Below are positions 1 to 5,870 of a stretch of 5,870 bases of DNA, piece after piece; the stretch's first letter is position 1, and each line of letters starts with the position of its first letter. This DNA is from a virus. Taxonomy: Duplodnaviria; Heunggongvirae; Uroviricota; Caudoviricetes. Under the pieces are notes generated by a model that was not told the DNA's origin, made no database searches, and saw only the letters and a list, made by a program, of their open reading frames with translations. The position numbers were made by a program, and so were the translations under genes. The DNA lies in IMG/VR virus record IMGVR_UViG_2751185972_000009, positions 1-5,870 of that record. The stretch is one strand, 5' to 3'.

Positions 1-322
1 TTTTCCAGAGGCGGTCGAACTCCGCCTTCGCAAAATAAGCGGAAGCCTGGCGAAGGATATCGTTACTGCGGCGCAGTTCACGATTTTCACGTTCCAGCTC
101 TTTCAGACGCTGACGTTCAGCGGTGGTGAGCCCGCCATCACCGCCTCCGGTATCCCGCTCATGCTGGCGTACCCAGACACGCAGAGTCTCCGGTGTACAG
201 CCAATCTTTGGGGCAATGGAACAAATTGCCGCCCACTGTGAGTCATATTCGCCCTGACTTTCCAGAACCATACGAATCGCCCTCTGACGGACTTCGGGGG
301 AAAAACGAGTATTTTTAGTCAT
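1..322 (-). CDS. IS3-family transposase OrfA (HTH, leucine-zipper region), truncated by the window edge
   Basis: ATG at 322..320 on the - strand; a plausible RBS (AGAGGTAAACAGG) is 5' of it on that strand. The frame stays open to position 2; its C-terminal ...[20 protein letters not shown] lies where the IS3-family OrfA/OrfB frameshift window normally sits. Confidence 0.8.
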
Positions 323-4819: not shown

Positions 4820-4895
4820 GGCCCTTTAGCTCAGTGGTGAGAGCGAGCGACTCATAATCGCCAGGTCGCTGGTTCAAATCCAGCAAGGGCCACCA
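4820..4895 (+). tRNA. ileZ: tRNA-Ile2 (anticodon CAU, lysidine type; AUA decoding)
   Basis: Manual cloverleaf: acceptor GGCCCTT/AAGGGCC, D-arm GCTC-AGTGGTGA-GAGC, anticodon loop CTCATAA, T-arm GCTGG-TTCAAAT-CCAGC, discriminator A, encoded CCA. Near-identical in design to E. coli ileX. The symbol follows Stx-phage nomenclature recalled from memory. Confidence 0.85.
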
Positions 4896-4904
4896 TATCA
4901 CATA

Positions 4905-4981
4905 CCACCATTAGCTCATCGGGATAGAGCGCCAGCCTTCGAAGCTGGTTGCGCGGGGTTCGAGTTCTCGATGGCGGTCCA
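4905..4981 (+). tRNA. argN: tRNA-Arg (anticodon UCG)
   Basis: Manual cloverleaf: acceptor CCACCAT/ATGGCGG (one A:C mismatch at 3:70), D-arm GCTC-ATCGGGATA-GAGC, anticodon stem CCAGC/GCTGG, loop CTTCGAA, T-arm CGGGG-TTCGAGT-TCTCG (two G:U), encoded CCA. Confidence 0.75.
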
Positions 4982-4995
4982 TTTATCGGTATTCT

Positions 4996-5039
4996 GCGTT
5001 GTTAGCTCAGCCGGACAGAGCAATTGCCTTCTAAGCAGC
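4996..5039 (+). pseudogene. tRNA-Arg (anticodon UCU) 5' fragment: acceptor 5' strand, D-arm and anticodon arm only
   Basis: GCGTTGT-TA-GCTC-AGCCGGACA-GAGC-A-ATTGC-CTTCTAA-GCAGC is a good 5' two-thirds of a tRNA. I could find no T-arm (no 5-bp stem around a 7-nt loop in 5036..5080) and no acceptor 3' strand (ACAACGC-like) anywhere downstream in the window. Confidence 0.5.
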
Positions 5040-5187
5040 TGTGGTTGCACTCCTGTTGTTTCTGGTGGTGATGGTGGACTTCAGCAGCCGGATAATGTCG
5101 GTGCTGTCTGATGGTGTTTTGGTGGCGGGTGTGTGGTTGTTGCTTTCCCGTTGCTGAAAAAGAAAGCATCAGGCGATTAGCAGGGTA

Positions 5188-5386
5188 TCAGTTACCCGTT
5201 GAAATTTTTAAATACCTCACAATTCCACAGCTTGATGATTGTCTGGCTGCCGGAGAATTTGTTAAAAATTACATCGCATGGTGAATCCCCCTCAGCGGCG
5301 GGGCATCTGGCAAAGTGTATGATCCAGAGAACATGCAAATTCAGTAGACAGGCTGAATTTACCGGGAGGCCCCTGGCACCATGCGA
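5188..5386 (+). repeat. Copy 1 of a ~200-bp diverged direct repeat with conserved stem-loop architecture (candidate structured RNA or leader); core 5276..5384
   Basis: Aligns with 5656..5852 at roughly 70% identity. Shared blocks: CAGTT..CCCGT, ATTGTCTGGC, TTTGTTAAAAA, GCATGGTGAATCCCCCT, CTGAATT(T/C)ACCGGGAGGC, CACCATGC. GCATGGTG (5276..5283) is the reverse complement of CACCATGC (5377..5384). Confidence 0.6.
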
Positions 5387-5412
5387 CAGACAGAAATTAG
5401 GCTATACTTCAG

Positions 5413-5435
5413 CCCCTCTCCGGAGGGGCTTTTCT
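5413..5435 (+). terminator. Intrinsic terminator-like hairpin downstream of repeat copy 1
   Basis: CCCCTC (5413..5418), loop tccg, GAGGGG (5423..5428), then CTTTTCT. Confidence 0.5.
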
Positions 5436-5489
5436 GTGCAGGATGTGTCACAGTTTCCTGAATTCTGAGTACTGTCCTGTTACTCAGGG

Positions 5490-5498
5490 TGCTATATT
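5490..5498 (+). promoter_or_regulatory. Candidate extended -10 promoter (TGcTATATT) between the two repeats
   Basis: TGn + TATATT at 5490..5498. A perfect 7-bp inverted repeat CTGAGTA/TACTCAG (5465..5487) overlaps the -35/spacer position. No good -35 hexamer. Confidence 0.3.
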
Positions 5499-5623
5499 TT
5501 CTGACGTGATGAAAGTCTGCCGGAAGGCGGAACGTATCGGAAATGACCCAGTAGAGAAAACGTTGACTCAGATACCGATGCTGAGTTACCGGGAAACCGG
5601 CATCACATGACCGCTATCCTTCC

Positions 5624-5648
5624 AGGCTCGCTCCGGCGGGCCTTTTTA
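5624..5648 (+). terminator. Intrinsic terminator upstream of repeat copy 2
   Basis: AGGCTCGC (5624..5631), loop tccg, GCGGGCCT (5636..5643; 8 bp including one G:U), followed by TTTTT. Confidence 0.55.
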
Positions 5649-5655
5649 CTGCAGA

Positions 5656-5852
5656 AAACAGTTTTCCCGTAAAATGCCACGTTGCTCATAATTCAGGCTG
5701 GCGATTATTGTCTGGCCGGCGGGAAGTTTGTTAAAAAATTTCGCATGGTGAATCCCCCTGTGCGGAGGGGTAATCAGCGAGTAGGTATATGGGATAATCG
5801 CGGATTCAGGTGCTGGTACTGAATTCACCGGGAGGCACCCGGCACCATGCAA
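5656..5852 (+). repeat. Copy 2 of the ~200-bp diverged direct repeat; core 5743..5850
   Basis: Same conserved blocks as copy 1. GCATGGTG at 5743..5750 and CACCATGC at 5843..5850. Hairpins P2 (CCCCT/AGGGG), P4 (GGATTCAG/CTGAATTC) and P5 (CCGGG/CCCGG) are at equivalent positions. Confidence 0.6.
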
Positions 5853-5870
5853 TGGCACATAGCGCCACTC

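Follow-up and report, generated by a model that had tools for sequence, protein, structure and literature searches.

Structured elements between Q and the lysis genes of a lambdoid prophage belong to the STnc100 small RNA family

Identity of the structured elements

The structured elements at positions 5239-5870 of the window, the whole 5,870-nt stretch of viral DNA that was analysed, belong to a known prophage small RNA (sRNA) family, STnc100 (Rfam RF02076), and do not constitute a new RNA class. STnc100 is also EcOnc27 of E. coli O157 Sakai and sRNA103 of EDL933, i.e. one RNA under three names. The segment very probably represents a head-to-tail array of three separate STnc100-family sRNA genes, referred to here as units 1 to 3 (Table 1). 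A first-pass annotation of the same DNA had described two copies of an element without recognising any named RNA family in it, and it was covariance-model searching that supplied the name.

Against the RF02076 covariance model, for which the curated gathering score is 47 bits, unit 1 scored 138 bits (E = 2e-31) in a full-length match over 5246-5439, and unit 3 scored 102.1 bits (E = 4e-22) over 5715-5870, its 3' end being cut by the end of the window. In the identical phage record L001, where unit 3 is complete, its score was 132.5 bits. Units 1 and 3 therefore both pass the gathering score at two to three times its value, and the match of the two copies is far beyond chance. Our own core model, R1, gave 100.8 bits for unit 1 and 111.8 bits for unit 3 on the + strand and only 9.7 and 11.4 bits on the - strand, in agreement with the first-pass assignment of helices P1, P2, P4 and P5 to the + strand, the only strand on which they form. 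The sequence, all helices and the terminator type of these two units agree with STnc100, as does the site between Q/PR' and the lysis genes that the family occupies in lambdoid and Stx prophages, and nothing essential differs. Many copies per genome are typical of the family, with 11 on record in EDL933, and STnc100 matches were found in 2843 of 5426 complete E. coli genomes. In this window the units are arranged as a three-gene tandem array, without a convergent anti-sRNA partner of the AsxR/AgvB type.

Expression, Hfq binding and visibility on Northern blots come from the literature on homologues and would apply to the present units by analogy. Hfq CRAC and Northern blot data are on record for EcOnc27 (Tree 2014, PMC4104026; PMC7873438), STnc100_4 was visible on a Northern blot (PMC5331693), and the STnc100 promoters of Salmonella LT2 carried an RpoD ChIP-exo signal (PMC10794520). 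Changes in the fimZ and espA transcripts are the only ones on record for STnc100 overexpression. Few sRNAs are annotated in bacterial genomes as often as STnc100; one copy adjoins stx2, and variants in the promoter region of that copy track with HUS risk (PMC12711010).

Array organization and genomic setting

The array occupies the moron slot of a lambdoid prophage: Q, a DNA methyltransferase gene and phage tRNA genes precede it, and the lysis cassette follows. E. coli NCCP15648 and M217, which carry this prophage, match the window at 100% identity over 5188-5870. In annotated identical records the gene order is Q, methyltransferase, tRNAs, array, iraM, (SASA esterase or DUF1737), holin and lysozyme, with the iraM-like gene that comes next past the array on the opposite strand. 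Annotations of 'hypothetical protein' in phage and RefSeq records overlap these RNA genes. Arrays of two to five units are common in the family.

Base-by-base re-reading confirmed the pair of copies described in the first-pass annotation, with GCATGGTG at 5276-5283 and 5743-5750 and CACCATGC at 5377-5384 and 5843-5850, as well as the positions given for P2, P4 and P5, the ATGs at 5381 and 5847 and the 467-nt distance between the cores of units 1 and 3. That annotation had, however, overlooked a third, diverged copy between the two, complete with its own terminator (unit 2), and had taken the central segment to be equal in length in both copies, whereas copy 1 has 33 nt there and copy 2 has 31 nt.

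Table 1. Coordinates of the array features in the window (L001, identical phage record; R1, own core model)
Feature	Position	Strand	Detail and evidence
Unit 1 promoter-like site	5239..5269	+	-35 TTGTCT 5239-5244, 17-nt spacer, TTAAAA/TAAAAAT 5262-5269; ends 6-7 nt before P1; read from sequence
Unit 1 core (first-pass copy 1)	5276..5384	+	RF02076 138 bits; R1 100.8 bits; MFE fold
Unit 1 P1	5276-5283 with 5377-5384	+	Closing helix
Unit 1 P2	5288-5291 with 5300-5303	+	
Unit 1 variable central domain	5304-5336	+	
Unit 1 P4	5337-5344 with 5353-5360	+	
Unit 1 P5	5362-5366 with 5372-5376	+	
Unit 1 single-stranded linker GACAGACAGAAAUUAGGCUAUACUUC, candidate seed region	5385..5410	+	Inferred from PasD; linker exchange
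Unit 1 Rho-independent terminator AGCCCCTC-TCCG-GAGGGGCT, then TTTCTG	5411..5436	+	Terminator scan (L001 7224-7243 = window 5411-5430)
Unit 2 extended -10-like site TGcTATATT	5490..5498	+	Hexamer starts 11 nt before P1; position of family-wide -10 peak
Unit 2 core (diverged middle copy)	5504..5608	+	RF02076 30 bits; R1 27.9 bits
Unit 2 P1	5504-5511 with 5601-5608	+	7/8 pairs
Unit 2 P2	5516-5521 with 5526-5531	+	GGAA loop
Unit 2 P4	5564-5571 with 5581-5588	+	
Unit 2 P5	5589-5592 with 5597-5600	+	GAAA loop
Unit 2 Rho-independent terminator AGGCTCGC-TCCG-GCGGGCCT, then TTTT	5624..5648	+	Terminator scan (L001 7437-7456 = window 5624-5643)
Unit 3 promoter-like site	5708..5739	+	-35 TTGTCT 5708-5713, 17-nt spacer, TTAAAA/TAAAAAAT 5731-5739; read from sequence and family positional profile
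Unit 3 core (first-pass copy 2)	5743..5850	+	RF02076 102 bits cut, 132.5 bits in L001; R1 111.8 bits
Unit 3 P1	5743-5750 with 5843-5850	+	
Unit 3 P2	5755-5759 with 5766-5770	+	
Unit 3 P4	5802-5809 with 5819-5826	+	
Unit 3 P5	5828-5832 with 5838-5842	+	
Unit 3 linker AAUGGCACAUAGCGCCACUC...	5851..5870	+	Continues in L001 7684-7716
Unit 3 terminator CAGCCCCTC-TCCG-GAGGGGCTG, then TTTAT	Equivalent to 5873-5894, from 3 nt past window end	+	L001 7686-7707

Each unit would be served by a sigma-70-type promoter that places the transcription start at or beside the first base of P1. The predicted transcript would begin with a core of ~108 nt, whose 5' end pairs ~100 nt downstream (P1) and closes a junction made up of P2, a hypervariable central domain, P4 and P5, and would continue through a short unpaired linker into a Rho-independent terminator, giving expected products of ~160, 145 and 160 nt. 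A strict consensus promoter scanner called no + strand promoter in the region, the unit 1 site included, and motif positions were therefore profiled in 78 non-redundant upstream regions of the family. In this profile the -10-like motif TANNNT starts at -10 from P1 in 26 of the 78 regions and at -11 or -9 in 12 more, and TTGA starts at -34/-33 in 22, i.e. both motifs peak at fixed distances from P1. The RF02076 model takes in ~30 nt upstream of P1, whereas the promoter analysis places these nucleotides in the promoter, outside the RNA. At the other end, the terminator scan returned three + strand terminators, one per unit (the third in L001, past the end of the window), and the unit 1 terminator aligns to the terminator helix of RF02076.

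The middle unit scored 30 bits (E = 0.001) against RF02076, under the gathering score of 47 bits, and 27.9 bits (E = 7e-5) against R1, yet none of the four helices has been lost, and the promoter-like -10 site and the terminator are also retained; it is therefore called a diverged relative and not a curated member. The GGGAGG motif is absent from it. Its minimum free energy (MFE) z-score was -3.5, with P1, P2 and P5 predicted, and a variant in UM146 (34.5 bits with our core model) has a perfect P1, together with a P2 and a terminator that are different in sequence yet paired. Unit 2 was found in 673 of the 5426 complete E. coli genomes and was unannotated among the matches listed.

RNA structure and covariation

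MFE folds of the + strand gave P1, P2, P4 and P5 in units 1 and 3, with z-scores of -2.2 and -2.8, respectively, and the same helices are seen when the two units are aligned to the structure line of RF02076. Across 99 distinct IMG/VR homologues, 95.5% of cells were paired compared with 79.5% in shuffles, 19 of 26 pairs had changed on both sides, and the covariation score was 0.42, as against 0.14 in shuffles and <=0.07 when the partners were slid. A further 29 sequences, gathered with P2 as anchor, presented the same covariation picture, bringing the total to 128 distinct homologues. MAFFT alignment followed by RNAalifold, a procedure not fitted to our own model, recovered P1, P2, P4 and P5 plus a short helix closing the central domain. 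A pattern scan of genome contigs yielded mostly chance matches outside Enterobacterales, and the model was passed by 29 matches in 22 of 100 loci. The covariation supports the first-pass proposal of paralogous phage-encoded structured sRNAs in the moron region, and the individual base changes cited for it were correct, namely the outer pair of P4, which is A-T in copy 1 and G-C in copy 2, and the G:U pair of P5 in copy 1 (CCGGG/CCTGG), which is G:C in copy 2.

The helices do not all draw on this test to the same degree. P1, P2 and P4 covary strongly among the 128 homologues, whereas P5 is an almost invariant sequence block, loop included, and covariation therefore barely tests the P5 helix. 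The first homologue set had been picked by a pattern inside P5 and so provides no test of P5, but P5 was nearly invariant in the P2-anchored set as well. The pairing of P5 is instead predicted from thermodynamics and from the 4-bp, GAAA-capped form in unit 2, and the conservation of the block hints at a sequence-specific role.

A reading in which the repeats are DNA-level features, i.e. a recombination site, an IS or gene remnant or a protein-binding array with only incidental RNA structure, might be suggested by the tandem layout and by module boundaries that resemble recombination break points. It is contradicted because compensatory changes keep four helices paired, and on one strand only; with no protein-family match and with transcripts detected for homologues, it is barely credible. 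A decayed protein gene was likewise discarded, as none of the ORFs that overlap 5188-5870, whichever their strand, had a Pfam match.

The AUG within P1

The first-pass annotation had proposed a conserved long-range pairing of a start codon. The helix is indeed conserved, but most family members lack the AUG. Among the 114 elements tallied, only 26 have CACCATGC as the P1 3' strand, and other pairs, e.g. CACCACAA/TTGTGGTG, are frequent. The idea that the element is a structured translational-control leader, in which P1 hides the AUG and the GGGAGG of P5 hides the ribosome-binding site of an ORF that is embedded or lies downstream, with copy 1 as a decayed duplicate, is consistent with the position of GGGAGG 11 nt upstream of the ATG in both copies and with the presence of this motif in 127 of 136 unique family members. 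However, 87 of these 127 have no ATG 4-14 nt downstream (GTG or TTG being present in only 2 of the 87), and the P1 3' strand changes together with its partner, as in CACCACAA/TTGTGGTG and CACCGTAG/CTACGGTG. Where ATG frames are present they extend over 3-56 codons and are not conserved, and of the 25 distinct frames for which a terminator was detected, 21 stop beyond it. The one that begins at ATG 5847, previously described as open past the end of the window, ends after 46 codons when followed in the identical phage record, ~90 nt downstream of the terminator. The combination that would mark a cis-acting leader, a helix with a conserved start codon followed on the same strand by an ORF or gene that is itself conserved, was not found. 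With an unconserved ATG, a terminator at the end of every unit, ORFs that run through it and a following gene on the opposite strand, start-codon sequestration for a downstream gene was rejected and is considered highly improbable.

A related proposal is that some copies, those of the AUG type, are dual-function RNAs, sRNAs from which a tiny peptide is translated as well. In its favour, 40 of the 127 members have the SD-like motif and an ATG at 11-nt spacing, and ribosome coverage on the EDL933 STnc100 copies varies from 0 to 3.2 and is sometimes high (PMC5331693). Footprints on abundant structured sRNAs with an SD-like motif are, however, no proof of translation, no peptide is conserved apart from residues set by the terminator DNA, the same 21 of 25 ORFs have no stop inside the terminated transcript, and the overlapping ORFs lack a Pfam match, which together make a coding role improbable. 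The AUG in P1 would then arise incidentally from one variant of the helix and would not serve as a start codon.

Comparison with other RNAs

A close parallel is offered by PasD1 and PasD2 of EPEC E2348/69, homologous to EcOnc13, which have in common with the units the P1, P2 and P4 architecture, the GGGAGG motif, a linker followed by a terminator and the site between Q and holin. The PasD1 core scored 43 bits against our STnc100 core model, and Zhu, Shabalina and Storz have put forward a common origin for PasD and STnc100 (bioRxiv 10.64898/2026.05.13.724894). PasD differs in having no P5 hairpin and a longer linker with a UGUGAG seed; in an alignment to PasD, neither this seed nor a PasD-type linker was present in any of the three window units, although the core architecture is common to both.

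The anti-sRNAs AsxR (RF02703) and AgvB (RF02702) resemble the units in their moron locus, Hfq binding and division into a conserved and a variable recognition part. Unlike the units, these RNAs measure 51-60 nt, are encoded on the opposite strand and have their variable part at the 5' end and their conserved part at the 3' end. With Rfam hits accepted up to E <= 1, neither the window nor L001 6400-9100 contained a convergent partner of this kind.

Two genuine tRNAs lie immediately upstream at 4820-4981 (ARAGORN and Rfam tRNA model), and a tRNA-like origin was considered for the units in view of these adjoining phage tRNA genes. As in the tRNA cloverleaf, the ends of the units form a closing helix and the last hairpin (P5, 5 bp) abuts its 3' strand, but helix and loop sizes differ and the units have no T-loop or anticodon-loop signature. 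Neither ARAGORN nor the Rfam tRNA model returned anything at 5239-5870, and this origin was set aside.

Linker exchange and proposed function

Among 232 pairs of elements with cores >=90% identical, 99 have linkers <60% identical. This joining of near-identical cores to unrelated 3' linkers suggests a conserved scaffold with an exchangeable seed. In PasD, the UGUGAG seed defined by RIL-seq and the RIL-seq chimeras of PasD1 fall in the linker equivalent to 5385-5410, and the linker of the present units is assigned as the seed region by analogy with that RNA, which lacks the P5 hairpin. The units may accordingly be envisaged as acting in trans as Hfq-dependent base-pairing regulators, in which the conserved core would be a scaffold, e.g. 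an RNA-stabilising 5'-end clamp or a protein-binding module, and the variable linker that directly precedes the terminator would, like that of PasD, act as the seed for target recognition. With candidate linkers at 5385-5410, 5609-5623 and 5851-5872, each unit would then aim at targets different from those of the other two.

An alternative is that the core works mainly without target base-pairing, as a protein or ribosome decoy or as a cis-acting processing or stability element of the Q-antiterminated late transcript for neighbouring moron genes. J1/2 (GAAUCC), the P2 loop and the whole of P5 show extreme sequence conservation, which exceeds the need of a plain scaffold and counts towards this alternative, as does the location of the units inside the PR' late operon, where they would also be transcribed in the late mRNA upon Q read-through. 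PasD levels, moreover, were not lowered in a delta-hfq strain under activating conditions (log2 fold changes of +0.5 and -0.2; supplement of PMC8550237). Against it, the units have their own promoters and terminators, and homologues were recovered by Hfq CRAC and by RIL-seq with many mRNA partners; on this evidence, a core that functions mainly in this way is unlikely.

The likely explanation of the whole, and the best one available, is thus three STnc100-family sRNA genes, each with its own promoter and terminator, a scaffold core and a linker seed. A more speculative extension, offered only tentatively, is that the STnc100 core is a dedicated sequence-specific scaffold (a 5'-end clamp or a protein or ribosome platform) onto which prophages graft interchangeable seed linkers, that tandem arrays are module-shuffled libraries of regulators, and that unit 2 represents a widespread unannotated subfamily with GNRA-capped P2 and P5 and loss of GGGAGG. 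The position of P1 at the predicted transcription start, the maintenance of P1, P2 and P4 by compensatory change beside a frozen P5, the swapping of linkers between identical cores and the sub-threshold subfamily may all serve as guides for experiments, and these additions leave the classification as the known STnc100 family unchanged. Exchange of linkers could also come about by plain recombination at the conserved core boundaries, without selection for new targets.

Assignment to STnc100

The element, which the first-pass annotation did not recognise as any named RNA family, belongs to STnc100 (RF02076). Its identity was settled by the first Rfam covariance scan, in which copy 1 matched the full model at 138 bits (E = 2e-31; gathering score 47) and the truncated copy 2 at 102 bits, rising to 132.5 bits for the complete copy 2 in the phage vB_EcoS-640R1 record. 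The helices of the Rfam structure line are those described in that annotation, namely the closing long-range helix P1 and the inner hairpins P2, P4 and P5. Every feature that could be tested places both copies, hereafter units 1 and 3, in RF02076. The window has not two copies and a spacer but three units in tandem, spaced about 230 nt apart, the middle one (unit 2) being a diverged relative under the curated threshold. The reading of the copies as paralogous structured phage sRNAs was right, and is a finding already known; the third unit, tandem-array habit, promoter placement, frozen P5 and linker exchange are modest additions.

STnc100 was first defined from Salmonella. The E. coli O157 form, EcOnc27 in Sakai and sRNA103 in EDL933, is Hfq-crosslinked and Northern-verified, and changes in fimZ and espA transcripts are the only effects reported on overexpression (PMC12711010; PMC7873438), with function given as unknown (PMC9029176). 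Tree et al. described sRNA pairs including EcOnc27 at the moron site downstream of PR' in at least eight lambdoid prophages (PMC4104026); EDL933 carries 11 copies, one of them Northern-verified (PMC5331693), an STnc100 copy is situated 75 nt downstream of stx2B (PMC12370729), and a 2026 preprint ties the family to EPEC PasD1 and PasD2 (bioRxiv 10.64898/2026.05.13.724894). Over 5188-5870 the window shares 100% identity with hundreds of E. coli chromosomes and with several phage records, and of 5426 complete E. coli genomes 2843 contain similar sequences, at 8186 places in all. Three other identities were rejected: PasD (PasD seed and linker absent), anti-sRNA (no RF02702 or RF02703 match) and tRNA-like (no support from ARAGORN or the Rfam tRNA model).

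Structure and covariation

Direct reading of 4900-5870 bore out the coordinates of both copies, whose cores are 74% identical, along with the 8-bp P4 hairpin (outer pair A-T in one copy and G-C in the other), P5 as CCGGG-AGGCx-CC(T/C)GG with a G:U in copy 1, and ATGs at 5381 and 5847. The central segments, described as equal in length, measure 33 nt (copy 1) and 31 nt (copy 2). Folding of the + strand gave P1, P2, P4 and P5 in both copies (minimum free energy z = -2.2 and -2.8), and the claimed strand specificity was upheld by the core covariance model, which gave + strand scores of 100.8 and 111.8 bits versus - strand scores of 9.7 and 11.4 bits.

Two patterns were used to collect homologues: one lying within P5, run on IMG/VR (set 1, 120 loci), and one spanning P1 and P2, run on a single genome per species (set 2); true matches in set 2 were found in Enterobacterales only, including Salmonella, Klebsiella, Enterobacter, Kosakonia, Raoultella and Pantoea. 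The core model aligned 136 and 29 instances, respectively. Among the 99 distinct sequences of set 1, 95.5% of cells were paired versus 79.5% in shuffles, and both sides had changed in 19 of 26 pairs (8/8 in P4, 6/8 in P1, 5/5 in P2). The covariation score was 0.42; shuffles scored 0.14, and sliding the partners by 1-3 columns left at most 0.07. The 29 instances of set 2 agree. A MAFFT alignment analysed with RNAalifold, unfitted to the core-model structure, recovered all four helices and also yielded a 3-bp covarying helix closing the hypervariable central domain, from which the core is modelled as a five-branch junction rather than four helices and an unstructured spacer. Of the four helices, P1, P2 and P4 covary. 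P5 is almost invariant, even in the set not anchored on it, and because of this is read as a conserved sequence block, the support for its pairing coming from energy and from the shortened, GAAA-capped form in unit 2, not from covariation.

Features of the RNA array and its surroundings in the window
Feature	Position (strand)	Sequence or detail	Source
Unit 1, RF02076 match	5246-5439		Rfam scan
Unit 2, RF02076 match	5475-5650		Rfam scan
Unit 2, core-model match	5501-5610		filters off
Unit 3, RF02076 match	5715-5870	cut by window end	Rfam scan
P1, unit 1	5276-5283 with 5377-5384	GCATGGTG/CACCATGC	direct reading
P1, unit 3	5743-5750 with 5843-5850	GCATGGTG/CACCATGC	direct reading
P2, units 1 and 3		3' of AATCCCCC	direct reading
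Central-domain helix, unit 1	about 5304-5307 with 5333-5336	alignment A7 columns 32-34 with 93-95; one pair GC 26, AU 12, CG 3, UA 2	RNAalifold
P1, unit 2		ACGUGAUG/CAUCACAU, 7/8 pairs	direct reading
P2, unit 2		UCUGCC-GGAA-GGCGGA	direct reading
P4, unit 2		UGACUCAG/CUGAGUUA	direct reading
P5, unit 2		CCGG-GAAA-CCGG	direct reading
Extended -10 site, unit 2	11 nt upstream of P1	TGcTATATT	
Terminator, unit 2	5624-5643 (+)	plus T-run	terminator scan
Promoter-like site, E. coli-type units	ends 8-9 nt before P1	TTGTCT, 17-nt spacer, TTAAAA	
Upstream box	5216-5225, 5448-5457, 5685-5694	CTCAcAATTC; TCACAGTTTC in middle unit	
'Hypothetical proteins'	5646-5858 (-); 5443-5610 (+)	overlap sRNA genes	phage GenBank
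Pseudogene fragment	5733-5858	within the 5646-5858 (-) ORF; overlaps sRNA gene	RefSeq
tRNA-Met (anticodon CAT)	4820-4895		ARAGORN
tRNA gene remnant	4997-5050		
DUF3927 ORF	5041-5157 (+)	38 codons; 42.6 bits (cut-off 25)	Pfam
DUF3927 ORF, shorter	5071-5157		RefSeq
ALIL pseudoknot (IS3-family frameshift element), partial	1-41 (-)	43 bits vs gathering score 50; cut by window edge	

Start codon and coding potential

The alternative reading, that of a structured translational-control leader with copy 1 as a decayed duplicate, drew on the ATG embedded in the P1 3' strand of both copies, and is wrong, as this start codon is unconserved among homologues. The P1 3' strand reads CACCATGC in only 26 of 114 tallied elements, common variants of the helix including CACCACAA/TTGTGGTG, CACCACAC/GTGTGGTG and CACCGTAG/CTACGGTG, and of the 127 unique members that carry GGGAGG, 87 lack an ATG at a distance of 4-14 nt downstream. 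Where an ATG is present, the frames span 3-56 codons and are unconserved except at residues set by terminator DNA; of 25 distinct frames for which a terminator was detected, 21 have their stop codon beyond it. The reading frame opened at ATG 5847, which runs off the window, is not open-ended: in vB_EcoS-640R1 (MQWHIAPLSSPSPEGLF...) it passes the terminator and stops after 46 codons, inside an antisense iraM-like gene. No Pfam match was found for ORFs overlapping the region, and the two annotated ORFs and the pseudogene fragment are probably spurious calls.

Promoters, terminators and tandem arrays

The first base of P1 served as common reference for comparing 78 non-redundant upstream regions. 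Of these, 26 have a TANNNT hexamer beginning at -10 and 12 more have it at -11 or -9, and 22 have TTGA beginning at -34 or -33, over a background of 0-7 counts per position. Given this placement, transcription should start at or beside P1, with the RNA 5' end locked in the closing helix. A 5'-terminal helix is a known brake on 5'-end-dependent decay (RNase E and RppH pathways). The terminator scan identified three + strand intrinsic terminators, one after each core. RpoD has been located at STnc100 promoters in Salmonella LT2 by ChIP-exo (PMC10794520). A CTCAcAATTC box, which recurs in many E. coli-type units among the IMG/VR loci, lies 56-60 nt upstream of each P1, just upstream of the -35 region, and is a possible regulator or UP-type site.

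The window is not alone in having a tandem array: 2-5 units occur together in 21 of 129 hit clusters among the loci collected (modal spacing 220-265 nt). One of these arrays lies outside Escherichia and Salmonella, with five tandem STnc100-like units on the 400-kb Pantoea sp. App145 plasmid pAPP145_2 (locus L213, 3114-4488).

The middle unit

Unit 2 matched RF02076 weakly (30 bits, E = 0.001) and the core model at 27.9 bits (E = 7e-5), retains all four helices, and has the strongest fold of the three units (z = -3.5). Its variant in E. coli UM146 is 92% identical and differs exactly where compensation is informative: P1 is perfect, P2 is GCCUG-UCAG-CAGGC, and the terminator stem is changed in sequence with pairing retained. 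Unit 2 was found in 673 of 5426 genomes, with no annotation among the matches listed.

Linker exchange and proposed mode of action

Each of the three units is an independent gene encoding a structured RNA from a known family associated with Hfq. The RNAs would act in trans by base pairing, with the core as scaffold and the unpaired linker between core and terminator as the putative seed. The linker is favoured because the core of EPEC PasD1 matches the STnc100 core model (43 bits) while its seed, UGUGAG, which the window units lack, and its RIL-seq chimeras lie in the equivalent linker, and because near-identical cores carry dissimilar linkers. Linkers were less than 60% identical in 99 of 232 element pairs with cores at least 90% identical, and the core of unit 3 recurs unchanged with at least four unrelated linkers. 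This joining of near-identical cores to unrelated linkers and terminators indicates recombination at core boundaries, and the UM146 array, in which the middle unit stands alongside a unit-3-like core and a third type, shows module shuffling. Arrays in different prophages have differing units around the same middle unit (UM146, L244 1294-1890; vB_EcoS-640R1, L001 7086-7665). The GAAUCC junction and P5 are both nearly invariant, suggesting a further partner that recognises sequence.

Genomic surroundings

Gene order in annotated identical records agrees with the proposed moron slot between Q and lysis: DUF968, RusA, antiterminator Q, a small ORF, a DNA methyltransferase, tRNA(CAT), tRNA-Arg and the DUF3927 ORF precede the RNA array, which is followed by the iraM-like gene (opposite strand), a SASA esterase or DUF1737 gene, holin and lysozyme. 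The gene called tRNA-Met by ARAGORN is identical to one named tRNA-Ile in RefSeq, in keeping with a phage tRNA of the lysidine-modified ileX/ileZ type. The remnant is of a third phage tRNA gene; over its first ~56 nt it is identical to the UM146 tRNA-Arg(UCU), which there follows tRNA-Ile and tRNA-Arg, and about 20 nt spanning the T-arm are deleted, with no ARAGORN call. The DUF3927 ORF lies between this remnant and the first sRNA unit, and in E2348/69 a separate DUF3927 gene adjoins PasD1.
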